Shown: in pieces, positions 1,663 through 19,019 of the stretch
Numbering within the stretch: the stretch's first letter is position 1
Layout: the number at the start of each line of letters is the position of its first letter
From: Gammaproteobacteria bacterium
GTDB taxonomy: Bacteria > Pseudomonadota > Gammaproteobacteria > GCA-001735895
Length of the DNA: 64,000 nt
Assembly: GCA_050291745.1 (NCBI GenBank)
Contig: JBNKKI010000092.1
Coordinates: forward strand, 13,103 to 77,102
Reading direction: 5' to 3'
The notes under the pieces: generated by a model
What the model was told of the DNA's origin: nothing
Databases searched by the model: none
The model's input: only the letters and a program-made list of their open reading frames with translations
Program-made: the position numbers and the translations under genes

Positions 1663-2409
1663 TTATTTTTCAGATGAGCAAACTGGACAGCTAGGGTTTT
1701 TGGGTATTTGAACTTGTTGCCATTGCATGTTCAGTGCATCAAATAATAATAATTTCCCAGTTATTTCTTCACTATTATTTGTTAAAACCAGCAAAGCCTG
1801 CAGGGCCTGGAAGGTTCCCATAATTCCGACTACCGGACCAAGAACGCCTTCCATCTCACAGGTTTGAGCATTCTCATATTCTCCGTTATATACACACTGG
1901 TAACAGGGGGTGTTAGTGTCTGGTATATAGCTCATGATTTGACCTTCCATACGAATTGCAGCAGCTGAGATGAGTGGTGTTTTAGTTTTGACACATAAAC
2001 GATTAACAGCAAAACGGGTAGGGAAGTTATCACTGCAATCCAGCACTATATCCGATTGAGATATGTAATGCTCAAGCTCTTCCTGATCAAGTTCATGATC
2101 GATCATATCTACTTTACAATCAGGATTAATGGAAACAATAGTTTGCTTAGCTGAATGTGTCTTCAGGTCACCAATAGTTGCAGTTTGATGGATAATTTGT
2201 CTTTGTAAATTAGATTCTTCAACTACATCATAGTCACTAATAATTAAGTGACCGACCCCAGCTGCAGCCAGGTACATTGCAGCAGGAGATCCTAAACCGC
2301 CCATTCCAATCATTAATATATTGCTATGTAAGATTTTATTTTGACCATCTTCACCTATTTGAGGTAATTTTATCTGCCGATCAAAACGTAATTTCTGTGC
2401 TGGTGTCAT
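1663..2409 (-). CDS. MoeB/ThiF/HesA-family E1-like adenylyltransferase
   Basis: Gly-rich nucleotide loop MIGMGGLGSPAAMYLAAAGVG, C-terminal CxxC...CxxC (PCYQC, CPVC) zinc motif; last gene of the AOR operon. Confidence 0.85.
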   Translation of the reverse strand: MTPAQKLRFDRQIKLPQIGEDGQNKILHSNILMIGMGGLGSPAAMYLAAAGVGHLIISDYDVVEESNLQRQIIHQTATIGDLKTHSAKQTIVSINPDCKVDMIDHELDQEELEHYISQSDIVLDCSDNFPTRFAVNRLCVKTKTPLISAAAIRMEGQIMSYIPDTNTPCYQCVYNGEYENAQTCEMEGVLGPVVGIMGTFQALQALLVLTNNSEEITGKLLLFDALNMQWQQVQIPKNPSCPVCSSEK

Positions 2410-2429: not shown

Positions 2430-2744
2430 TTAACCACCACCTTTATGAAAGTATTTGAAAAATTTATCAAAAAAGAAATCAGACTGCTCTTTTGTTGCTG
2501 ACGTAACTGAAAAACTTACTAGTAATACTGGAAGTGAAATTGCTCCAAGGGTTCTTGGAGGCTGTAATTGAGCTTCAATCTGAACAATCATTGAAGAATT
2601 TTTATGGGAAATTGTCCAGCTATTTTGTTTTTCTGAGAGACATTCAAGTTCTGAATGTTCGCCAGTAAAATTACCGTGGATAACATTATTAAATTCAGTT
2701 CTGGTATAACCCATGTCATATTGATATTTAATTGCTTCACTCAT
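2430..2744 (-). CDS. hypothetical 104 aa protein ending in -GGG, in the AOR/E1 operon
   Basis: ORF ends ...FHKGGG*; lies between the MoaD-like gene and the E1-like gene with 14-20 nt gaps; no motif recognised. Confidence 0.5.
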   Translation of the reverse strand: MSEAIKYQYDMGYTRTEFNNVIHGNFTGEHSELECLSEKQNSWTISHKNSSMIVQIEAQLQPPRTLGAISLPVLLVSFSVTSATKEQSDFFFDKFFKYFHKGGG

Positions 2745-2758
2745 GCAAAAGCCATCAA

Positions 2759-3010
2759 TTAACCACCTGCTACTGGTGGCCAGATTGATATAGTATCACC
2801 GGTTAGCAAGGTTTTATTTTTACGATCATCTCCACATACAAATAGGCCATTAAGCAATACGATATGAGCCTGTTCGTCAGTTATTTTAAAAGATTCAATC
2901 AACTGTTGTACTGTGGTTGAATCATCGATATTAATTTCTCTTCGAAAACGTTGATTGCCTGGAGGTAGTAAATGCATAAGTGATGCATATAATTCGATAT
3001 ATATTTTCAT
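2759..3010 (-). CDS. MoaD/ThiS-family ubiquitin-like sulfur-carrier protein
   Basis: 83 aa, C-terminus ...WPPVAGG* (Gly-Gly end), adjacent to the E1-like enzyme. Confidence 0.8.
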   Translation of the reverse strand: MKIYIELYASLMHLLPPGNQRFRREINIDDSTTVQQLIESFKITDEQAHIVLLNGLFVCGDDRKNKTLLTGDTISIWPPVAGG

Positions 3011-3015
3011 TGAAT

Positions 3016-4263
3016 TTAATTGAATTCCTGAGTACAGGACATATAGGCTTCCATAAGTTGAGTAGGATCCTGCATTAATCTGTCTTTCCAGATTCCCAGC
3101 TTTAAACGTGTTTCAATGAGACCTCTCAAAATGCCAATATGCTGTGTTAATCCTGTACAACTAGCACCGATAAGAATATCGTCTTCAAATTGCAGGTTTA
3201 AATATCGATAATCCTGTTCATTAAAAATTTCTACTGAATCACCACCATCAATGCCCATCCAGCTTCCAAAGGAACAGGAAATAAGCCCCAGTGTATCGAG
3301 GACATTCATATTGAGTGATCCTTGGTGATTTACTTTTTTTCCACACATATTCAGAGCTGCGATTCTACCATGATCGGTTGCTGTAGGCTGGATAGCCTGT
3401 ACCTCATGATCTCCTGAAGAAAAATCAAGTGCCTGAGCGACATCACCGGCTGCATAAATATTGGGGTTACTGCTTTGCAGGTATTGATTCACCAGAATTC
3501 CTTTATCAATTTGTATTTCGGTATTTTCGAGGAAATCAGTATTTGACATAACACCTGTTGCTGTTATCACAAGATCGGCTGGTAATAATTGACCATCAGA
3601 TAATTTGACTGAATATGAACCATTGCTATCTTTGATTATAGAGTCGATTTTACTGGAAGTCTTGACATTGATACCTTTATCTATACACCAGGATTTTATC
3701 AGGCCACCCGCTTTGTCATTGAGCATCCGGGGAACCATGCGATTGCCTGCTTCAACAACGGTTAAATTAATGCCACGTTTTAGTAATGACTCAAGGATAA
3801 TACAACCGATAAAACCTGCACCAATTAAAACGACATTAGAGCCAGGTTGAGCTAGTTGAATAATGTCACGAGCATCCTGTAGTGTCCAGCAACTGTGGAC
3901 TATATCCAGTTCAATACCTGGTATAGGTGGTGTATAAGGTTTCGAACCAGTTGAAATTAATAATTTATCGTAATGTATGTTATTAGTACTTTGCAAAATA
4001 ACCAACTGTGCTGTTGTATCGATACTGGTTACAGTATCCTGGATAATATTGATGTTTAAAGCGGCAAAATGTGTAGATGGATCACGTATATAAGTGCCTG
4101 CCTGTTCGATTTTTCCCTCCAGGAAATAGGGAATTGCCATTCGAGAATAGGGAGGCTCAGGCTCACTGCCAATGATGGTGATTTCAGCATCCTGATTATT
4201 CTTTCTGAGTGTTTCAGCTGCGATTACACCGGCTGTACCGGCACCGATTATGAGGAAATGCAT
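3016..4263 (-). CDS. FAD-dependent pyridine-nucleotide-disulfide oxidoreductase family protein (AorC-like NAD(P)H-binding subunit)
   Basis: Two Rossmann motifs (IIGAGTAGV near the N-terminus; VLIGAGFIGC mid-protein); immediately downstream of AOR. Confidence 0.8.
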   Translation of the reverse strand: MHFLIIGAGTAGVIAAETLRKNNQDAEITIIGSEPEPPYSRMAIPYFLEGKIEQAGTYIRDPSTHFAALNINIIQDTVTSIDTTAQLVILQSTNNIHYDKLLISTGSKPYTPPIPGIELDIVHSCWTLQDARDIIQLAQPGSNVVLIGAGFIGCIILESLLKRGINLTVVEAGNRMVPRMLNDKAGGLIKSWCIDKGINVKTSSKIDSIIKDSNGSYSVKLSDGQLLPADLVITATGVMSNTDFLENTEIQIDKGILVNQYLQSSNPNIYAAGDVAQALDFSSGDHEVQAIQPTATDHGRIAALNMCGKKVNHQGSLNMNVLDTLGLISCSFGSWMGIDGGDSVEIFNEQDYRYLNLQFEDDILIGASCTGLTQHIGILRGLIETRLKLGIWKDRLMQDPTQLMEAYMSCTQEFN

Positions 4264-4338
4264 AGGATTTCTCTTTGGTTCGTTATTATTTTATTTAAAG
4301 CTCATCCGGGTAATATTCCCCGGATGAGCTTTAGTTTA

Positions 4339-6189
4339 TTAAAGAGACAGGCGCTGTTTGGTCTCCTGAGTTATCTCACCTTTATCCGTCCATCCTCTAA
4401 TTTCATAATAATGAGGTAGCATTTCACCTAAACGATTAACCTGTCCTTCAGTTGGTCCACTTTTAATGGCTTCTTCCAGAAGTCTCTTTGGTAACTTGTC
4501 ATCATCTGATGTAAAACCGGCTTTATTATTAAATTGCCGTTCCAGATTCCAAACTCGCTCACCAACCTCAAGACATTTTTCAACGCTCCAGTCACCAGCG
4601 CAAGCACCATCAATTTGTGGTGCAATATTATCCATTCCCCAGGCAAAAGTGGTGAAAAGGCAGATTCCAGCAGAATCAACAAGTGCAGTCGCATCCTGAA
4701 AAGCTTTTACCAGTTCAGGCTTACCATCGGTATCTGTCTGTTCGGTTTTTACAGGAATGCCAAGAATTTCTGAGGCAATGGTATAACCCCGAACATGGCA
4801 GGCTCCACGGTTGGAAGTGGCATAGTTTAGACCTATTCCCTGTATCCCTCGAGGGTCGTAAGCCGGAAATTCCTGTCCCTTCACATGCATTGCTAATTCC
4901 GGGTGACCATATTTTTCACAAAGTCTTTTTGAGCCTAGAGCCAGATCTTTACCAAAGCCTTTTCCACTTACCAGTGCTTCAACCGCTGCCACAAAAGCTT
5001 TTGCTGAACCAAATTTTAATTCTATTCCGCCAGTATTTTCTAAAGTTAGAATACCATCTTCAAACATTTCCATTGCTGCAGCAAGAGTACAGCCAAAAGT
5101 AATAGGGTCAAAGCCATCTTCATTACATAGAAAATTGGCATAAGTTAATGCATCCAGATCATCTACGCCCGTATCAGCACCGAGCGCCCAGGCTGCTTCA
5201 TACTCAAGACCACCAGATGCACCCCAGTATTCAGGTTTATTTTCAACTGAGAAATGTCCTTTATCAATAGTCGATATACGACCACAGGCAATAGTGCATC
5301 CAAAGCAACCGGCATTCGTGGTTAGATTGGCTTTACCATCACTAGCACGAAGTTCATGCATTGCTTCTCCGGAAATATTTCCCGCACCTTCGAATCCAAC
5401 ATCTTTCATGTTTCGTGCAGGTAGACCACCGACTCCATTAATAACATTCATCAATACCTGTGTGCCATAAGCAGGTAAACCTTCTCCAGTAACCGCATTT
5501 TCTGCGAGTACGGCTTTGCCGGCATTTACAGCTTCAATAAATTTTGGCATGTCATCAATGTTACCAACTCCCAAAGTGCCTCTTACTGCAACAGCTTTAA
5601 GATTTTTGGATGCCATCACTGTACCAACACCAGAGCGACCTGCAGCTCGATGTTTATCGTTGATTACGGCTGAATAAAGACAACCGGCTTCAGCTGTTCT
5701 ACCAACACAGGCTATACGAATTTGGGGGTCCTGATGAATTTTATGCAGGATATCATCCGTCTCCCAGGCTGATTTACCCCAGAGAGTTTTAGCAGAGCGA
5801 AGTTCTGCTTTATCATTTTCTATCCATAGATAGACAGGTTTTTCTGATTTACCTTCAAAAATAAGCATATCCCATCCGGCATTTTTAAATTCAGCTCCCA
5901 GAAAACCTCCAGAGTTTGAACAGGCGATAGCGCCAGTTAGTGGGCCTTTAGTGATAACTGAGTAACGACCGGCGGTTGAAGCCATGGTTCCAGTCAAAGG
6001 TCCCGTCGCCATGATTAATTTATTATCAGGGCCTAGTGGGTCGCAGGTTGGATCAACTTCTTCACTCAGATATTTAGAAGCAAGACCTCGCTGACCAAGG
6101 TATTCATCAGCCCATTGCATATTTAAGGGCTCAGCTGTACAGGTTCCTTCAGTGAGGTTTACGCGTAATATTTTTCTTGTCCAGGACAT
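4339..6189 (-). CDS. aor: tungsten/molybdenum-pterin aldehyde:ferredoxin oxidoreductase (AOR family)
   Basis: 616 aa; N-terminal MSWTRKILRVNLTEG... and cysteine-containing stretches as in AOR; flanked by a polyferredoxin and MoaD/MoeB-like genes. Confidence 0.85.
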   Translation of the reverse strand: MSWTRKILRVNLTEGTCTAEPLNMQWADEYLGQRGLASKYLSEEVDPTCDPLGPDNKLIMATGPLTGTMASTAGRYSVITKGPLTGAIACSNSGGFLGAEFKNAGWDMLIFEGKSEKPVYLWIENDKAELRSAKTLWGKSAWETDDILHKIHQDPQIRIACVGRTAEAGCLYSAVINDKHRAAGRSGVGTVMASKNLKAVAVRGTLGVGNIDDMPKFIEAVNAGKAVLAENAVTGEGLPAYGTQVLMNVINGVGGLPARNMKDVGFEGAGNISGEAMHELRASDGKANLTTNAGCFGCTIACGRISTIDKGHFSVENKPEYWGASGGLEYEAAWALGADTGVDDLDALTYANFLCNEDGFDPITFGCTLAAAMEMFEDGILTLENTGGIELKFGSAKAFVAAVEALVSGKGFGKDLALGSKRLCEKYGHPELAMHVKGQEFPAYDPRGIQGIGLNYATSNRGACHVRGYTIASEILGIPVKTEQTDTDGKPELVKAFQDATALVDSAGICLFTTFAWGMDNIAPQIDGACAGDWSVEKCLEVGERVWNLERQFNNKAGFTSDDDKLPKRLLEEAIKSGPTEGQVNRLGEMLPHYYEIRGWTDKGEITQETKQRLSL

Positions 6190-6205: not shown

Positions 6206-6691
6206 TCAAGATGCAGCTGTTTCAGCGGCAGGTAAACTTTTAGAAGCTGAAGCTAGCATACGATTATATCCAGTCCAGTCTGAATCGATATAAGTGATGG
6301 CTGCAGTAGGGCAGGCTTTTGCACAGGCAGGGTCTCCACCACAGAGATCACATTTCACGACTTTACCCGTTGCCTGGGAATAATTGATTGTTCCAAAAGG
6401 ACAGGCGATGGTGCAGACTTTACATCCAACACATTTATCATCAGACACTACTTTGGCACCGGTTGATACGTCTAAACTAATGGCATTGACAGGACAGGCG
6501 CGTTGACACCAGGCTTCATCACATTGTGTACAGGTATAAGGGGCAAATCTGCCTTCATGATGGAAGGTAAAAACTTTAATAAATGATCGAGAGGGATTGA
6601 ATAAACCGGTATGTTCATAAGAACAGGCCAATTCACATTGAAGGCATCCGGTACATTTCACCGGATCAATATGTAAAGATTTTTGCATCAT
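6206..6691 (-). CDS. 4x[4Fe-4S] polyferredoxin, electron-transfer subunit (AorA-like)
   Basis: Four CxxCxxCxxxCP clusters in 161 aa; first gene of the operon. Confidence 0.85.
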   Translation of the reverse strand: MMQKSLHIDPVKCTGCLQCELACSYEHTGLFNPSRSFIKVFTFHHEGRFAPYTCTQCDEAWCQRACPVNAISLDVSTGAKVVSDDKCVGCKVCTIACPFGTINYSQATGKVVKCDLCGGDPACAKACPTAAITYIDSDWTGYNRMLASASKSLPAAETAAS

Positions 6692-7014
6692 CTTCTCCTG
6701 GCTTTGGATTATAATTGTATTGTTTTTTGATTTTACATAAATATCGCCTTATATGTTAATAAAAATATTCTATAAATGGTTTTTTATAGTTATAAAATAC
6801 TACTAAATAAGGGGTTTATACTTTGTCTGGCGTCTTAAAATGACTGCTGATAGAGGAAATATAACTGATATATTTTCAAACTGAATATTACTGCCAGTTT
6901 TAAACATGAGTTAGATAAAAATTTCGTTATCGATTGTTCTTCTATAAAATGCCTGATTTTTTTTACAAATGTGAATTCCTGATGTTACACAAAGTTCAAT
7001 TATATCAATAGACT

Positions 7015-7719
7015 ATGGATACTTTATATGAAGCTACACGAGATGCATTTATGCTACTATTCAGTGGGGATCCGGAAATATGGGGTATCATTGGCATATC
7101 ATTTCGTGTTTCAACTATAGCAATTCTGTGTGCTATTCCTCCGGGTATAATGACAGCTTTTATACTGGCTCATTTCAGGTTTCCAGGTAGAAATCTTTTA
7201 ATATCTATATTTAGTGCATTATTGTCTGTACCTGCCGTAGTTGTTGGGCTGACTTTATTCATACTTTTATCCCGGCAGGGACCTTTTGGTGATTTTAGAT
7301 TATTGTTTACCCAGTCTGCGATGGTGATGGGACAATTTCTGTTAAGTTATCCAATTCTGGTTTCTATGTCTCTGGCTGCCATCCAGTCTGTTGATAATCG
7401 TGCCTGGGAAACTGCCAGAACTTTAGGTGCTAATCCCATTCAAGCTTTGTTGACACTCATGTATGAAGTTCGTTTTGGATTACTGACAGCATTGCTAGCT
7501 GGCTATGGACGTATTATTGCCGAAGTTGGCGCTTCTATGATGCTTGGTGGTAATATTATGCATTACACGAGAAATATTCCGACGGCCATTGCTCTTGAAA
7601 CCAGTAAAGGGAATTTTGCTCAGGGTATGGCGCTTGGCATTGTACTTGTCATTTTATCTTTTTTATTAAATGCTTTTCTTCACTCAATGGATCATAAATC
7701 TTCTACGGCTAATTCTTGA
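7015..7719 (+). CDS. ABC-transporter permease, ModB/TupB/CysT-type (molybdate/tungstate/sulfate class); no partner genes nearby
   Basis: About 5-6 TM; EAA-loop ETARTLGANPIQALLTLMYEVRFGLLTALLAGYGRIIAEVGASMMLGG; no binding-protein or ATPase gene adjacent. Confidence 0.6.
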   Translation: MDTLYEATRDAFMLLFSGDPEIWGIIGISFRVSTIAILCAIPPGIMTAFILAHFRFPGRNLLISIFSALLSVPAVVVGLTLFILLSRQGPFGDFRLLFTQSAMVMGQFLLSYPILVSMSLAAIQSVDNRAWETARTLGANPIQALLTLMYEVRFGLLTALLAGYGRIIAEVGASMMLGGNIMHYTRNIPTAIALETSKGNFAQGMALGIVLVILSFLLNAFLHSMDHKSSTANS

Positions 7720-7951: not shown

Positions 7952-9337
7952 ATGTCTGAAAACACATTTGAAATATATTATTATGACGGTATAAAAGCTG
8001 GTCTGGATAAACAGGAAGTCATTCAAAAACTAGCTGCATTACTAAAGCTTCCTGAAGATAAGTCTGAACGAATAATCTCATCCTTCAATCGCGTCATTAG
8101 AAGCGGACTTACTCGAGAACAGGCTGAAAAATATCTTTATGCGCTTGATAATATTGGTTTACAGGTAAGAATGCAGACTCTTCAGGGTCAGGGTCAGGGT
8201 CAGGGTGAGGATGAGGTACCTTCCTCAGCTGAAAAAGATCAGCAGAAAGTTAAATCAGAGCAACCGGCGCAAACTGGTAAAAAACAGGTGGATTCTTCTT
8301 TAAAGGGTAAATCTCAACTTAATCAGACAAAAGATTTTGATCATTCCAGTAAAAGTGTTGCTGTTAAATTTAATGGAACTGGAATGGAATATTTCAAAAT
8401 CTGGATTGTAAATATTTTTCTGACGATTATTACTTTGGGTATATATTCTGCCTGGGCCAAAGTGCGAAATAAGCAATATTTTTATGGTAATACCATTATT
8501 GATGGTAGCAGTTTTCAATACACTGCAACACCGATTACAATTTTAAAAGGCCGTGTTATTGCTGTAGCTATATTTATTCTATACAGCCTGATTGTTAATT
8601 TGCTACCTTTACTGGGGCTTTTGCTTATGCTTATTTTAATCGGCTTTATACCCTGGCTAATCGTAAGATCACTGGCGTTCAATGCTCGTAACAGTATGTA
8701 TAGAAATATTCGTTTCAATTTTACCGGAAAAGCGATTGATGCTTTTAAAGTTTTTATACTTTGGCCTATTTTAATTATCTTTACCTTTGGATTAATTACA
8801 CCTCTAATCTGGTATAAACAAACCAGTTTCATCGTCAGTAATAGTGCTTATGGCGCTACTTCATTTAACTTCAACACATTGGTCGGTAAATATTTCAATA
8901 TATTTTTCATCGCTCTGGGTGGTTTATTCGGGGCGGGTATTCTACTTTCCTTTTTAACAACCATAGCAGGACCAGCGCTTGTAGTGGTTATTTCTCCGTT
9001 GTTTACATTAACTTATATTGTCTTCTTTGCGTACCTGACAACAGCTTTATCTAATTTACAATTCAATTCTACACATCTTGTCCAACATGGGTTTACTTCT
9101 TCTCTCAAAGTAAGTCAGGTAAGCTGGATATATTTCACCAATATTTTACTTATAATTTTAAGCCTTGGTTTAATGATTCCCTGGGCTATGGTCAGAATGG
9201 CTAGATATCGAGCTGAATGTCTCAGTTTACAGGTACAGGGATCAGTTGATAATTTTATCGCTGTAGAACAACAAAAAGTATCTGCTCTGGGTGACGAATT
9301 AAGTGGCGTGTTTGATGTGGAAGTTTCCTTTATATGA
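7952..9337 (+). CDS. DUF898 (YjgN-like) polytopic inner-membrane protein with a cytoplasmic N-terminal extension
   Basis: Threefold repeated TLGIYSAWAKVR / GLITPLIWYK / GLMIPWAMVR modules with following aromatic/Gly stretch; N-terminal approx. 130 aa Lys/Ser/Gln-rich with a QGQGQGQG run. Confidence 0.6.
   Translation: MSENTFEIYYYDGIKAGLDKQEVIQKLAALLKLPEDKSERIISSFNRVIRSGLTREQAEKYLYALDNIGLQVRMQTLQGQGQGQGEDEVPSSAEKDQQKVKSEQPAQTGKKQVDSSLKGKSQLNQTKDFDHSSKSVAVKFNGTGMEYFKIWIVNIFLTIITLGIYSAWAKVRNKQYFYGNTIIDGSSFQYTATPITILKGRVIAVAIFILYSLIVNLLPLLGLLLMLILIGFIPWLIVRSLAFNARNSMYRNIRFNFTGKAIDAFKVFILWPILIIFTFGLITPLIWYKQTSFIVSNSAYGATSFNFNTLVGKYFNIFFIALGGLFGAGILLSFLTTIAGPALVVVISPLFTLTYIVFFAYLTTALSNLQFNSTHLVQHGFTSSLKVSQVSWIYFTNILLIILSLGLMIPWAMVRMARYRAECLSLQVQGSVDNFIAVEQQKVSALGDELSGVFDVEVSFI
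8183..8206 (+). repeat. in-frame hexanucleotide repeat (CAGGGT)x4 encoding QGQGQGQG inside the DUF898 gene
   Basis: Four perfect tandem CAGGGT units seen directly. Confidence 0.9.
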
Positions 9338-13584: not shown

Positions 13585-14301
13585 TTAAAATGATAACTGT
13601 TTTTTGACTTCCTTATAATCGATATGACGAACATCTTTGCCATGTTTTAGAAATAAAACATATTCACAGATATTGATTGCATGGTCACCCACTCGTTCAA
13701 GTGCTCTGGCACACCAGGATACACGTAGAGCGTTTTTTATTGTTCTGGGGTCTTCCATCATTAAAGTGATTAACTGTCGCATCAGGGATTCAAACTCTTC
13801 GTTTACTTTTTGATTCTTTTTGAGAGTTTTAAGTGCAACTTCATCATCGAGTCTGGCAAAAGAATTTAAGGCATTATTTAACATACGACTGACAAGTTGT
13901 CCCAGGTGTTCGAGCTTGGCGTATTGCAAGGAAGTTGAGCCTTCATCCAGTAACTCCAGTTCAAATTTACCTAGTTTTTCAGCCTGATCTCCTATTCTTT
14001 CCAGATCAGTTATGGTTTTTATAATGGCCACCACCAGACGAAGATCACTGGCTGCAGGTTGTCTTCTAGCGAGGATTTCAACACACTGGCTATCAATTTC
14101 AACTTCCATTGCATTTATCTTGTAATCTTCTGTAGATACAAGTTGTGCAATTTCTGAATTTGATTCCATTAAAGCCTTTATGCCATTGTTTAACTGGGTT
14201 TCAACCATGCCACCCATGGTTAATACTTTATTTCTAATGTCTTCCAGTTCGTTATCAAATCGTTTCGATATGTGACCGCCTAACGGAGATTCTGTATTCA
14301 T
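13585..14301 (-). CDS. phoU: phosphate-specific transport regulator PhoU
   Basis: 238 aa, duplicated PhoU helices (DxxIEVxxxRI-type motifs), last gene of the pst operon. Confidence 0.9.
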   Translation of the reverse strand: MNTESPLGGHISKRFDNELEDIRNKVLTMGGMVETQLNNGIKALMESNSEIAQLVSTEDYKINAMEVEIDSQCVEILARRQPAASDLRLVVAIIKTITDLERIGDQAEKLGKFELELLDEGSTSLQYAKLEHLGQLVSRMLNNALNSFARLDDEVALKTLKKNQKVNEEFESLMRQLITLMMEDPRTIKNALRVSWCARALERVGDHAINICEYVLFLKHGKDVRHIDYKEVKKQLSF

Positions 14302-14321
14302 AGAGTGTAATATCCTGATGA

Positions 14322-15230
14322 TTATCCAAATTTTCCAGTGATGTAATTTTCAGTCAATTCGTGACGTGGATTGGTAAATATCTGAGAGGTTTCACCAACT
14401 TCAATTATTTTTCCTAAATGAAAATAGGCAGTTCGTTGAGAAACTCTGGCAGCTTGCTGCATAGAGTGGGTTACGATTGCTATTGTGAAATTCTCTCGTA
14501 GTTCATCAATCAATTCCTCAATAATTGCTGTTGCAATAGGGTCAAGTGCAGAAGCGGGTTCATCCATCAGAATAACTTCAGGGCTGACCGCTATTGTCCT
14601 GGCAATACATAACCTTTGCTGTTGTCCACCAGAAAGACCTGTTCCAGGTTCATTTAAGCGATCTTTGACTTCTTTATATAGACCGGCTTTTTCAAGACTG
14701 GTTATGACTATTTCATCAAGATCAGAATTAGTTCTTGCCAGGCCATGTAAACGGGGACCATAAGCTACATTGTCATAAATTGACTTGGGAAAAGGATTAG
14801 GTTTCTGAAATACCATACCAACTCTGGCCCGTAATAATACTGGGTCCATTTTCCTGCTATAAATATCTTCATTATCCAGTAAAAACTCACCACTAACTCG
14901 ACAGCTTGAAATAGTGTCGTTCATTCGATTAAGTGTTCTTAGATAGGTGGATTTACCACAACCTGAAGGTCCAATCAGTGCAATTACTTCATTGCGGCCT
15001 ATATCAAGTGAAGCATCAAAAATCGCCTGTTTTTCACCATAAAATACATTCACATTTCGTGTTTTAAACTTGGCATTTTGCAGAATATTTTCACCAATCG
15101 TGACATGCTGCTTTTGTTTACTACCTGTATCAGTAGCATTATCTGTAATATCTTCTTGCATAGTATCGGGATTCGCTCGAAAAGACTTTGAGAATGTCGT
15201 TGTTGTCTCAGTTAACATCATTCTTACCAC
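14322..15230 (-). CDS. pstB: phosphate ABC transporter ATP-binding protein PstB; the true start is probably downstream of the annotated one
   Basis: Walker [10 protein letters not shown], signature LSGGQQQRL, Walker B ILMDEP; [16 protein letters not shown] matches the PstB N-terminus; annotated start overlaps the pstA stop. Confidence 0.9.
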
Positions 15231-16501
15231 CGCCTTTCAAAATGTTTTCGTAAAAAGATAGCTAAGGTATTCATAATAGCCAGAAAGACTAATAAAACCA
15301 GAATAGTCGCAGCTGTTAAAGCTGTGAATGCTCGTTCCGGGCTATCAGACCATAAGTAAATTTGAACGGGTAAAACGGTTGCTGAATCTACTATACCACC
15401 AGGCACATCGACAATAAAAGCAACCATTCCAATCATCAGTAGTGGGGCTGTTTCACCTAGAGCCTGTGCCATACCAATGATAGTACCAGTCAATATACCC
15501 GGCATAGCAAGTGGTAGAACATGATGAAATACCGTTTGCATATGAGATGCTCCGATGCCCAGAGCCGCTTCCTTAATAGAAGGTGGTACGGATTTAATGG
15601 CTGCGCGGCTTGAAATGATAATAGTCGGTAGCGTCATTAATGATAAAACCAGGCCACCGACAAGAGGAACAGAGCGGGGCATACCAAAAAAATTGATAAA
15701 TACGGCCAGTCCCAACAGACCAAAAACGATAGAAGGTACGGCAGCCAGGTTATTGATATTTATTTCAATAAAGTCAGTCAGTTTATTTTGAGGAGCAAAC
15801 TCTTCCAGATAAACTGCGGCACCTATTCCTACCGGTAATGAAATTAACAGGGTTACCAGTAAGGTCCAGAATGAACCAAGCAGGGCACCTTTAATACCTG
15901 CCTGTTCAGGTTCTCTGGAATCACTGGCTAACAAAAAATTTGTATTAAAACTGGTACGAATATGCTCATTCTGAATTAAATGATCGATATATATTGCCTG
16001 CCTGTCGCTAACGCGACTAGTTTTAGTTTGCAGCTTATAGAAAGTATCGATGTCATCATCTGCTTTCAACCAGACAGGGAGTACTGGATTTTCATTTTTA
16101 GAAGAAATTAATTCAGGGTGTTTCAATATATATTCACGCAGAGAAAACTCAGCACCACTGGATATCAATTTATATAATTGTTTCTTATCCTTTCTTTTGT
16201 GAACTTCAGGGAACATCTGGCTGAGTGATTTCTTTATCAAACCATAATAATTAATGGCAGATAGTGTTTCTTCATTAATAATCGCATCTGGAGAGAGCTC
16301 CAGTGCTTCTCTATCAATTGCAATCTCTAACAGGATTTCTGTGCTTTGAAACGCGGGTATTGCTTTGATGAATATATCCGCCAAAAGTAATGCAAGGAAT
16401 ACGAAACCCGTTAAAACCGCCAGTTTTCCATACCATTGAAATCGTTTTTCCCTGGCATAGCGCTTGCTCAATCCCTTCTTAACTATATCTGTATTATTCA
16501 T
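15224..16501 (-). CDS. pstA: phosphate ABC transporter permease PstA (long form)
   Basis: 425 aa, permease EAA region ...[20 protein letters not shown]; operon position. Confidence 0.85.
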
Positions 16502-17864
16502 ATTGTTCCCGATATTTTCTTACGATATGCAGAGCAATTACATTGAGTAATAATGTCGTAACAAAGAGCATCAAACCCAGCGCGAAAGCTGCCAGTGTCT
16601 TTGGGCTGTCAAATTCCTGATCCCCGGTTAACAGGGTTACAATTTGAACAGTAACAGTTGTCACTGCATCCAGCGGGTTGGCTGTCATATTAGCGGCCAT
16701 ACCAGCGGCCATAACGACAATCATGGTTTCACCTATTGCTCTGGAAGCAGCTAATAACACTCCACCGACAATACCGGGTAAAGCGGCTGGAATTATGACC
16801 TGTTTAATTGTCTCTGACTTAGTTGCACCGAGGCCAAGCGAACCATCTCGCATGGCCTGGGGGACAGCAGTGATAACATCATCTGATAATGATGAGACAA
16901 AAGGTATTATCATCACACCCATCACAACACCGGCAGCCAGCGCTGATTCGGAAGCGACACTCAGGCCGATAGATTCACCTGCAGATCGTATAAATGGAGC
17001 AACACTTAGCGCAGCAAAAAAACCATAAACAACAGTGGGAATTCCCGCCAGTAATTCAAGTGCTGGTTTTGCCAGAGAGCGAAACCTTTCTGAAGCATAT
17101 TCAGATAAATAAATAGCCGAAAGTAAACCAATTGGGACAGCTATGAACATCGCTATTGCGGATATCAGCATAGTACCAACAAATAAAGGAATAGCACCAA
17201 AGGATCCTGATGAACCAACCTGATCGGAACGAATTGCTGTTTGGGGACTCCAGTTAGTACCTAACATAAAATCTGTAAAAGGAATAGAGTCAAAAAATCT
17301 TAGAGCTTCGAAAAGAACTGATAAAACGATTCCAATAGTTGTAAAAATTGCAACTGCAGAACACAAAGCTAAAAGGCCTTTAATTACTTTTTCAACGCCA
17401 ACACGGGCATGGCTATTAAGTAGTTTTTTTGTTAAGCCTAATATGATGCCGGACAGGCTGAGTAATATAACCAGAATAGTTAAAATGATGCGGCCTTTTT
17501 TCTCGGCTGCATAGTAGCTATCAATAGCTTTTTGTATAACAGGGTCATCACTTGTCTCTCCGTTAGCAATAGCCAGATCAATGCTATTGATATACAAATC
17601 AAGAGAATCTGAACTTTGAATTGACAGATTATCAGGCAGACTAAGAACAATTTGATGATGCAAATAAGCCGGTTGAAACATCATCCAGAATAAAATTAAT
17701 ACTAAAGCAGGAATACCACTTATCAAAGCGGTTAAGACACCATAATGTTTTGGCAAAGATTTGAGTTTTGAACTTGTCCCATGAATAAACGCACGTTGAC
17801 GTGCGCTTATAAACGCGATTAGGCTCAGACCTATAACCAGCAGAAGTAGGGCAGAACTATTCAT
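16494..17864 (-). CDS. pstC: phosphate ABC transporter permease PstC (long form)
   Basis: 456 aa, polytopic, EAA-like region ...LGATKSETIKQVIIPAALPGI; between pstS and pstA. Confidence 0.85.
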   Translation of the reverse strand: MNSSALLLLVIGLSLIAFISARQRAFIHGTSSKLKSLPKHYGVLTALISGIPALVLILFWMMFQPAYLHHQIVLSLPDNLSIQSSDSLDLYINSIDLAIANGETSDDPVIQKAIDSYYAAEKKGRIILTILVILLSLSGIILGLTKKLLNSHARVGVEKVIKGLLALCSAVAIFTTIGIVLSVLFEALRFFDSIPFTDFMLGTNWSPQTAIRSDQVGSSGSFGAIPLFVGTMLISAIAMFIAVPIGLLSAIYLSEYASERFRSLAKPALELLAGIPTVVYGFFAALSVAPFIRSAGESIGLSVASESALAAGVVMGVMIIPFVSSLSDDVITAVPQAMRDGSLGLGATKSETIKQVIIPAALPGIVGGVLLAASRAIGETMIVVMAAGMAANMTANPLDAVTTVTVQIVTLLTGDQEFDSPKTLAAFALGLMLFVTTLLLNVIALHIVRKYREQYE

Positions 17865-17923
17865 TTAGGAAAGATTCAGTAAAAAGTTGAATGAATGTTA
17901 AAGGTAAATACAATTTCAAACCA

Positions 17924-17956
17924 GAAGAAACTCCCGGAATAAACGGGAATTTCTTC
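17924..17956 (-). promoter_or_regulatory. intercistronic stem-loop between pstS and pstC
   Basis: GAAGAAAcTCCCG-gaataaa-CGGGAaTTTCTTC: 12-13 bp stem, 7 nt loop, inside the 114 bp pstS-pstC gap. Confidence 0.5.
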
Positions 17957-17978
17957 AGGCAGGATGTCATAAACTCTC

Positions 17979-19019
17979 TTACATTTTAAACTTTTTACCC
18001 ATCATAATGCTTTTACGTAAAGCTGTACGATCTGCTGAAGATAATGGGATTAATCCTTTATCCAGTAAGTAACCGTCATCACCCATAGCCGCTTCTGTTG
18101 TAAACTCTTTTAGATATTCTTTCATACCTGGTATAGCATCTATGTGAGCATTCTTTACATAGAAAAATAATGGGCGAGAGATAGGGTAAGATCCATCAGA
18201 GATTGTTTCAAATTCTGGTGATTCACCTTCAACCAGTGAGCCCTGAACCTTATCATCGTTCTGCTCCAGGAATGAAAATCCAAAAATACCAAGGGCATTT
18301 GAATTTTTTTCCAGCTTTTGAACAATCAGGTTATCATTTTCACCCGCTTCAATATAAGGACCATCTTCACGAATAGTATGACAAATTGCTTTATAAGCCT
18401 TTTTGTCTTTCTTTTTCATGGCTTTGATCCAGTCAAATTTCTTACAACCACCTTCCATAGCCAATTCTGCAAAAGCATCACGTGTACCAGAAGTAGGTGG
18501 TGGTCCTAATACTTCAATTGTGGAATTTGGTAATGAACTATTGACCTGATTCCATGTTTTATAAGGATTTTCTACCAGTGTTTTACTACCATCAGGATTC
18601 GGTACCTGTTTGGCCAGAGCCAGAAATAAATCCTTACGGGTTAATGAAAATTTCGGTGCTTCTTTTGAATTAGCAATAGCAATTCCATCATAACCAATTT
18701 GTACTTCAGTAATATCTGTAACACCATTTTTCTGACATTTATCATACTCAGATTTTTTAATGGCTCGTGAAGCATTCGTGATGTCAGGAGTATCTAGTCC
18801 GACTCCAGCGCAGAATAGTTTCATACCACCACCTGAACCGGTTGATTCTATTTTTGGAGTATTAAATTTTGTTTTTTTCCCAAATTTTTCAGCTACAACT
18901 GTAGCGAAAGGGTACACTGTTGAGGATCCAACAATGTTAATAGTATCTCTACCTGCAGCCACTGCTGATAAAGAAACCAAGCTTGTTGCTATGGCTGCTG
19001 CCAATACTAATTTTTTCAT
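17979..19019 (-). CDS. pstS: periplasmic phosphate-binding protein PstS
   Basis: 346 aa with signal peptide, SGSGGG and binding-protein fold motifs; first gene of the pst operon. Confidence 0.9.
   Translation of the reverse strand: MKKLVLAAAIATSLVSLSAVAAGRDTINIVGSSTVYPFATVVAEKFGKKTKFNTPKIESTGSGGGMKLFCAGVGLDTPDITNASRAIKKSEYDKCQKNGVTDITEVQIGYDGIAIANSKEAPKFSLTRKDLFLALAKQVPNPDGSKTLVENPYKTWNQVNSSLPNSTIEVLGPPPTSGTRDAFAELAMEGGCKKFDWIKAMKKKDKKAYKAICHTIREDGPYIEAGENDNLIVQKLEKNSNALGIFGFSFLEQNDDKVQGSLVEGESPEFETISDGSYPISRPLFFYVKNAHIDAIPGMKEYLKEFTTEAAMGDDGYLLDKGLIPLSSADRTALRKSIMMGKKFKM

Follow-up and report, generated by a model that had tools for sequence, protein, structure and literature searches.

The window, that is, the whole 64-kb stretch of DNA that was analysed, contains on its minus strand an operon of six co-directional and tightly packed genes. 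Their order was checked in the window, and they are given here in the direction of transcription, together with two segments of the fifth gene:

6206–6691, minus strand: AorA-like poly-ferredoxin with four clusters (Pfam Fer4 families)
4339–6189, minus strand: AorB-like catalytic subunit of a tungsten aldehyde oxidoreductase (AOR; Pfam AFOR_N, E = 3e-78, and AFOR_C, E = 3e-133)
3016–4263, minus strand: AorC-like FAD/NAD subunit, a flavoprotein (Pfam Pyr_redox_2, E = 7e-55)
2759–3010, minus strand: AorD-like beta-grasp sulfur carrier of the ThiS/MoaD family, 83 aa, ending in WPPVAGG (Pfam ThiS, E = 4e-9, plus NCBIfam thiS/moaD matches)
2430–2744, minus strand: GGG open reading frame in the AorE slot, 104 aa, ATG start, ending in HKGGG, with a predicted KA1/TBP-like fold
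2448–2492, minus strand: codons of the predicted C-terminal amphipathic helix, residues 85–99 (DSSP on the AlphaFold2 models, column conservation)
2433–2447, minus strand: codons of the tail H100-K101-G102-G103-G104 (low pLDDT, [HQ][KR]GGG conservation, synonymous variation)
1663–2409, minus strand: MoeB-type E1 adenylyltransferase, 248 aa, with CxxC...CxxC motifs and without a rhodanese domain (Pfam ThiF, E = 3e-78; NCBIfam MoeB subfamily, 306.6 bits against a cutoff of 266)

The fifth gene is the subject of this report. It is separated by 14 nt from the AorD-like gene upstream and by 20 nt from the E1 gene downstream, and its product ends in ...FFDKFFKYFHKGGG, the stop codon TAA occupying positions 2430–2432. 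A preliminary description of this DNA had presented it as an open reading frame of 104 residues that ends in HKGGG, lies between a MoaD-like carrier and an E1 and has no recognisable motifs. All of this was borne out, the neighbours matching the ThiS and ThiF families as listed and the product itself having no Pfam or NCBIfam match at E ≤ 1. As to the meaning of the terminal glycines, the same description had considered a second carrier or adduct substrate, a fused accessory such as a carrier-like domain with an N-terminal extension, and coincidence.

Within the operon, the gap between aorB and aorC is filled by a perfect 16-bp inverted repeat (TTAAAGCTCATCCGGG...CCCGGATGAGCTTTAG, window positions 4295–4334) with a loop of 8 nt, which could form an intra-operon hairpin that sets the expression ratio of AorAB to AorCDE and the E1. 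No Rfam family reached threshold across the whole 64 kb, and a search of the operon leader (6692–7014) gave no Moco/Tuco riboswitch, even at E ≤ 1.

The protein encoded by the fifth gene belongs to a widespread family that has no name and no Pfam or NCBIfam model. A word-indexed search returned 13 homologues with identities of 48–67%, all of which share the same 14 residues at the C-terminal end. When 1.84 billion representative proteins were searched exhaustively with a profile, 138 matches at E ≤ 1e-3 were obtained, nearly all of them about 90–120 aa long and aligned up to their own C-terminus, and a second profile search led to 434 clusters at 90% identity, for which the name, where a source gives one, is always 'hypothetical protein'. 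Mean pairwise identity among the approximately 170 distinct homologues is only about 31%. Apart from one spurious match of 2878 aa, no member is longer than 152 aa; N-terminal extensions, where present, look like mis-called starts, and a fusion to an N-terminal MoaD domain was found in none of the members, the two being encoded by separate genes here. The closest NCBI homologues (P0005 and its locus L001, GCA_024449465.1, contig JAANSR013044344.1) come from assemblies of millions of contigs and have no protein accession, and their source seems to be known only from metagenome-assembled genomes (MAGs) or from contigs of contaminants or symbionts. Within GTDB, Gammaproteobacteria MAGs match best, with an AorB identity of 90% in two loci (L011 and L012).

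The most constant feature of the family is its C-terminus. Among the profile-search matches the endings are HKGGG (55), QRGGG (33), HRGGG (26) and QKGGG (10), plus close variants. Of the 173 distinct sequences of a merged set, from which the column conservation was derived, 172 have a glycine at each of the last two positions, the third position from the end is a glycine in 166, and the residue before it is a lysine or arginine in 172, whilst none of the full-length members extends beyond the final glycine. A survey of the C-terminal glycines in orthologous AOR operons, as proposed in the preliminary description, gave an equally clear answer, since all 74 complete proteins from the AorE slot end in GGG, preceded by a basic residue in 73 of them and by a glutamine in the other. 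Further strongly conserved positions of the merged set are M11, E17, F18, L22, I56, R64, G67, L71, P72 and V76. In the last helix, the conserved phenylalanines F91, F95 and F99 lie on one face, and positions 94 and 97, which precede the tail, are mostly basic.

This constancy of the tail is found in the fastest-evolving product of the operon, with a mean pairwise difference of 0.69 for the GGG protein, compared with 0.52 for AorD, 0.40 for AorC and 0.23 for AorB. Moreover, it is maintained at the level of the protein. In the clade ending in KYFHKGGG there is free variation between TTT and TTC, AAA and AAG, and CAT and CAC, as well as among the four glycine codons and in the stop codon, which indicates selection on the peptide and not on a signal in the DNA or RNA. 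A ribosome-binding site of the E1 gene or an RNA element as the cause of the invariant tail can be excluded on the same grounds, and the GGG tail is retained even in loci without a following gene. A GGG terminus is expected by chance in about 3e-4 of open reading frames, as estimated here from the glycine frequency, and its conservation throughout the family rules out a chance ending.

Structure prediction with AlphaFold2 gave a mean pLDDT of 84.5 and a pTM of 0.74 from an alignment of 13 sequences, and a mean pLDDT of 90.5 and a pTM of 0.80 from one of 109 sequences. The two models agree on the topology, with beta1 at residues 5–11, alpha1 at 15–26, beta2 to beta5 at 33–81 and alpha2 at 85–99, so that the body of the protein is predicted to be a compact, KA1/TBP-like beta-alpha-beta4-alpha fold instead of the beta-grasp fold for which a structure prediction had been proposed. 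Residues 101–104 have a mean pLDDT of only 42 and 48 in the two runs, and the five-residue tail [HQ][KR]GGG-COOH that follows the last helix is predicted to be flexible. The closest folds in Foldseek searches are the KA1 domain (SAD kinase, probability 1.0, TM 0.64), the C-terminal domain of AMPK and Aha1, together with chain A of the Thermus thermophilus 'MoaD related protein' 1v8c (1v8c_A, probability 1.0). No stand-alone structure of ubiquitin, MoaD or ThiS appeared in the match lists, and MoaE was found neither among the structural matches nor as a Pfam or NCBIfam match. With regard to the KA1 domain of the MARK, SAD and Chk1 kinases and the C-terminal domain of AMPK alpha, the likeness is one of fold only, at 7–12% identity. 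Those are regulatory modules of eukaryotic kinases that lack a GGG tail and share no context with the window protein, a standalone bacterial protein in which the Pfam KA1 model has no match.

The nearest relative appears to be the DUF1952-type domain of 1v8c. Judging from the topology, from the Pfam signal described below and from the lack of stand-alone ubiquitin, MoaD or ThiS structures among the Foldseek matches, we infer that the match to this structure falls on its C-terminal domain, which is not a beta-grasp domain and which we take to be the one on which Pfam DUF1952 (PF09189) was built. PF09189 is the sole Pfam family to match more than two of 109 members. Five of these do so at E < 0.1, the best with E = 6e-4 and 20.0 bits against a gathering cutoff of 22, and for one member (P0110) a PF09189 match was already precomputed; the window protein itself has no match to this model. 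Sequence searches of the PDB, for which the family profile and two members (P0040 and P0110) served as queries, retrieved nothing meaningful and did not recover 1v8c, so the link is structural, with a weak Pfam signal in addition. The GGG family would so be remotely related, in a way not recognised before, to a domain that follows a MoaD domain in a Thermus fusion protein, whereas in the window the corresponding protein is encoded by a separate, neighbouring gene.

The genomic context of the family was examined in 80 GTDB loci obtained via a scan for AorB and annotated with HMMs built from the window proteins. Ten of them could not be assessed because the sequence ends too early, and in 65 of the remaining 70 an intact gene for a GGG protein lies on the strand of aorB and downstream of it. 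In most loci the MoaD-like gene is found immediately upstream of it, often with an overlap, and in the five loci where the MoaD-like gene has been relocated upstream of aorA, the GGG gene directly follows aorC. Conversely, the GGG gene is immediately followed by the E1 gene in just 16 of the 65 loci, mostly those of the closest relatives of the window, and in one locus the E1 gene is placed upstream of aorA. The order AorD, GGG protein, E1 is also present in three loci beyond these 16 (L001, L003 and L004). More distant members, with 21–26% identity to the window protein and from alphaproteobacterial or other metagenomic contigs, are found in the arrangement AorA-AorB-AorC-ThiS-GGG without an E1; one member on a short contig is part of a ThiS-GGG pair, and another lies on a short, uninformative contig. 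The GGG gene is thus stably associated with the MoaD-like carrier and AorB rather than with the E1, and the family is a near-obligate neighbour of the MoaD-like aorD in operons for three-subunit tungsten AORs. Taken together with the fold and the tail, the fifth gene is very probably a real gene for a protein of non-beta-grasp fold with a conserved GGG tail, which AOR operons pair with the MoaD-like gene.

The association is not universal. Four loci (L033, L069, L083 and L089, the last three of Methylococcales type) contain aorABC and the MoaD-like gene and lack the GGG gene, and in a further one (L030, positions 5241–5438) it is reduced to a frameshifted remnant (...EMSYTEAEFRKTL...). The GGG protein is therefore dispensable in some lineages, three or four of which keep AorD without it. 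A search of plasmids with tblastn yielded archaeal-type AORs only and no member of the GGG family. The only clearly non-AOR context seen is that of a protein ending in YFQRGGG (P0099), encoded in two loci (L005, 6001–6294, and L006, 2810–3103) 42 nt behind a gene with Bact_transglu_N and Transglut_core domains, in a neighbourhood devoid of AOR, MoaD-like and E1 genes.

A characterised counterpart of this operon is available in Aromatoleum aromaticum, whose three-subunit AOR is encoded by aorABC. The N-terminus of the window AorA, MMQKSLHIDP, corresponds to the MWKSLHIDP encoded by the published forward primer for aorA (PMC9295118, supplement), which supports the orthology of the two AorA proteins and points to the window operon as orthologous to the aor operon of A. 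aromaticum. In aorABCDE of A. aromaticum the AorE slot is that of the fifth gene, after aorA, aorB, aorC and the MoaD-like aorD, as it is in the window; for the sixth gene of the window operon, the MoeB-type E1, no counterpart is described in A. aromaticum. On the basis of this synteny the GGG family can with good confidence be equated with AorE. The published reverse primer for the whole operon lacks the terminal glycine codons (PMC9295118, supplement); it may anneal downstream of aorE, or this may be a discrepancy. AorE of A. aromaticum (WP_041646407) has been labelled a 'putative W-cofactor maturation factor', and aorD and aorE have been described as 'resembling MoaD' (PMC6365974), a label that would be inaccurate for AorE if the GGG family is indeed AorE. 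The addition of aorDE to an expression plasmid with aorABC raised the specific activity of the enzyme from 4.5 to 16 U/mg and its phosphorus content from 5.2 to 8.9 per enzyme, and an activity of 85 U/mg was reached with extra tungstate (PMC9295118). No further statements on AorE were found in the literature searched.

The GGG protein shares several properties with the carriers MoaD, ThiS, SAMP and Urm1: it is small, it has a flexible Gly-Gly-COOH tail, it has a MoeB/ThiF-type E1 as a neighbour and it is linked to the synthesis of a metallopterin cofactor. Of the features by which MoaD and ThiS are recognised, it has the free C-terminal Gly-Gly on a flexible tail and lacks both the beta-grasp fold and a match to the ThiS/MoaD profiles (Pfam ThiS, PF02597), its three glycines following a helix and a conserved basic residue. 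An exact chain end at Gly-Gly-COOH is characteristic of tails threaded into narrow active sites, such as that of MoaD into MoeB and MoaE, that of ThiS into ThiF and ThiG and that of ubiquitin into its E1. Furthermore, the CBASS Cap2 protein, an E1, activates a substrate that is not a beta-grasp protein, namely the C-terminal glycine of the CD-NTase. This is a precedent for the adenylation of such a glycine by a bacterial E1-type enzyme, although CBASS, in which an E1-E2 fusion carries out conjugation for anti-phage defence, is unrelated to the GGG protein in both sequence and context.

The GGG protein is best read as the maturation factor of the AorE slot for the tungsten cofactor. The flexible GGG tail would be its working part and would enter a narrow site specific for chains that end in Gly-Gly, as do the tails of MoaD, ThiS and ubiquitin. 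The likeliest such site would be the adenylation pocket of the MoeB-type E1, which is encoded next door here and would act in trans in most relatives. The E1 would adenylate the terminal glycine and then thiocarboxylate it, and AorE, as a second and non-beta-grasp protein sulfur carrier alongside AorD, would help to provide AorB with the dithiolene sulfur of its bis-metallopterin tungsten cofactor. Activation by the E1 is favoured here because the exact chain end is hard to explain without carboxylate chemistry, because the length of the tail equals those of MoaD and ubiquitin, and because E1s are not restricted to beta-grasp substrates, as CBASS shows. As the destination of the sulfur, an extra sulfido ligand on the tungsten was also considered; the published cofactor model, which has two oxo ligands and lacks such a sulfido ligand, gives it no support (PMC10413684). 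The mechanism as a whole, with an E1-activated tail and a second carrier working with AorD, has somewhat less than an even chance of being correct. The further claim that the protein represents a structurally new class of sulfur carrier, KA1/TBP-like, thiocarboxylated by an E1 and acting in tandem with AorD for the cofactor of bacterial AORs, is put forward still more tentatively.

Several observations are consistent with this carrier function: the invariance of the tail in a protein with a mean pairwise difference of 0.69, against 0.23 for AorB, the free synonymous variation in the tail codons, the predicted disorder of the tail after a confidently folded domain, the gene order AorD, GGG protein, E1, the intact GGG gene in nearly all assessable AOR loci and in the AOR operons of members with only 21–26% identity, and the published effect of aorDE on the activity and phosphorus content of the enzyme. 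Nevertheless, the adenylation and thiocarboxylation of the GGG protein are putative steps, and E1 enzymes recognise MoaD, ThiS and ubiquitin through a beta-grasp surface which this protein does not have. In addition, roughly three quarters of the operons have no adjacent E1, whose presence elsewhere is explained well enough by AorD alone, the lineages that retain AorD without a GGG gene indicate that the protein is not indispensable, and metallopterin synthesis is not known to need a second carrier. Nearly as likely is a non-covalent role, in which the GGG protein would be an adaptor or a MoaE-like partner that binds AorD and/or AorB, MoaE or MoeB and serves as a scaffold or chaperone for the synthesis or insertion of the metallopterin, its tail merely plugging a pocket for Gly-Gly tails by mimicry of MoaD, without ever being activated. 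MoaE, the large subunit of molybdopterin synthase, is likewise encoded directly after a MoaD-type gene, often with an overlap, so that the order of aorD and the GGG gene mirrors that of moaD and moaE and makes the GGG protein a candidate carrier partner. In MoaD-MoaE fusions, MoaE occupies the position behind MoaD, as does the related DUF1952-type domain in 1v8c. Moreover, KA1, the AMPK C-terminal domain and Aha1, which come nearest in fold, serve as co-chaperones or bind other proteins, the majority of the operons lack an E1, and the gain in activity and phosphorus upon addition of aorDE is compatible with cofactor supply or insertion (PMC9295118). Against such a passive partner, the GGG protein resembles MoaE in neither sequence nor fold and MoaE has no conserved GGG terminus; a mere plug should tolerate variation or extension, whereas the chain ends exactly in the glycines in 172 of 173 members. 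A mirror-tree comparison was not discriminating, with a partial r of 0.46 for AorD and AorE compared with 0.45 for AorC and AorE, and thus gave no sign of a special coupling between AorD and AorE.

Other explanations for the tail are much less probable than either of these. A ubiquitin-like tag, whose E1-activated glycine would become linked to a lysine of a target protein, for instance AorB or MoaE, in the manner of archaeal sampylation and would so regulate the assembly or turnover of the AOR, is improbable. The free and flexible [KR]GGG terminus does resemble the LRGG tail of ubiquitin, the E1 adjoins the GGG gene in the clade of the window, and one member is encoded behind a transglutaminase-like gene outside AOR operons (L005 and L006), yet no gene for an E2-like protein, a JAMM/MPN protease or another deconjugating protease was found in any AOR locus examined, the MoeB-type E1 of the window has no extra domains, and the family is tightly linked to a sulfur carrier and an enzyme that depends on a cofactor. 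The interpretation offered in the preliminary description was upheld in part and failed in its beta-grasp reading. A second beta-grasp carrier of the MoaD/ThiS type with an N-terminal extension, suggested by the Gly-Gly terminus, by the position between a MoaD-like gene and an E1 and by the published resemblance of aorD and aorE to MoaD (PMC6365974), is refuted by the AlphaFold2 fold, on which both models agree down to the C-terminal helix (mean pLDDT 90.5 in the better one), and by the lack of a ThiS, MoaD or ubiquitin match in Pfam or NCBIfam at E ≤ 1, so that only a very slight chance is left to it. Even less credit can be given to coincidence, i.e. a spurious open reading frame with a meaningless ending: nothing favours it except the low prior of any small unannotated frame, and it is contradicted by the 138 representative homologues and 434 clusters, the Gly-Gly end of virtually every member, the conserved synteny, the protein-level selection on the tail and the confident fold.

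Tungsten AORs are attracting growing interest as catalysts for the reduction of acids and for the H2-driven recycling of NADH, and their heterologous production is limited by the maturation of the cofactor, for which the increase in AOR activity upon co-expression of aorDE has so far been the only functional hint (PMC9295118). If the GGG family is the same as AorE, the second 'MoaD-like' helper is not MoaD-like in its predicted fold and belongs to a large and unnamed family of hypothetical proteins, defined by an invariant and exactly terminal [KR]GGG tail. Should this tail be activated by the E1, it would be the first protein thiocarboxylate carrier without a ubiquitin fold and, as a new class of carrier, would extend E1-dependent thiocarboxylate chemistry beyond that fold. 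Should it not be activated, the family would represent a new partner of MoaD-type carriers and would provide a role for DUF1952 and for the orphan Thermus structure 1v8c.

Some features of the surrounding DNA may be added. Divergently from the AOR operon, positions 7015–7719 on the plus strand encode a TupB-like tungstate/molybdate ABC permease (NCBIfam TupB, E = 1.5e-60, under the equivalog cutoff), beside which neither a binding-protein gene nor an ATPase gene was found; it is followed at 7952–9337 by a gene for a DUF898 membrane protein with a QGQGQG repeat. Downstream of the E1 gene, a hydrophobic open reading frame of 121 aa without a Pfam match lies at 875–1240 on the minus strand, and the near-identical contig L002 has a gene call for it too. 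Further along the window, positions 13585–19019 of the minus strand hold a complete phosphate transport cluster, phoU-pstB-pstA-pstC-pstS, in which both PstC (456 aa) and PstA (425 aa) carry long N-terminal extensions.
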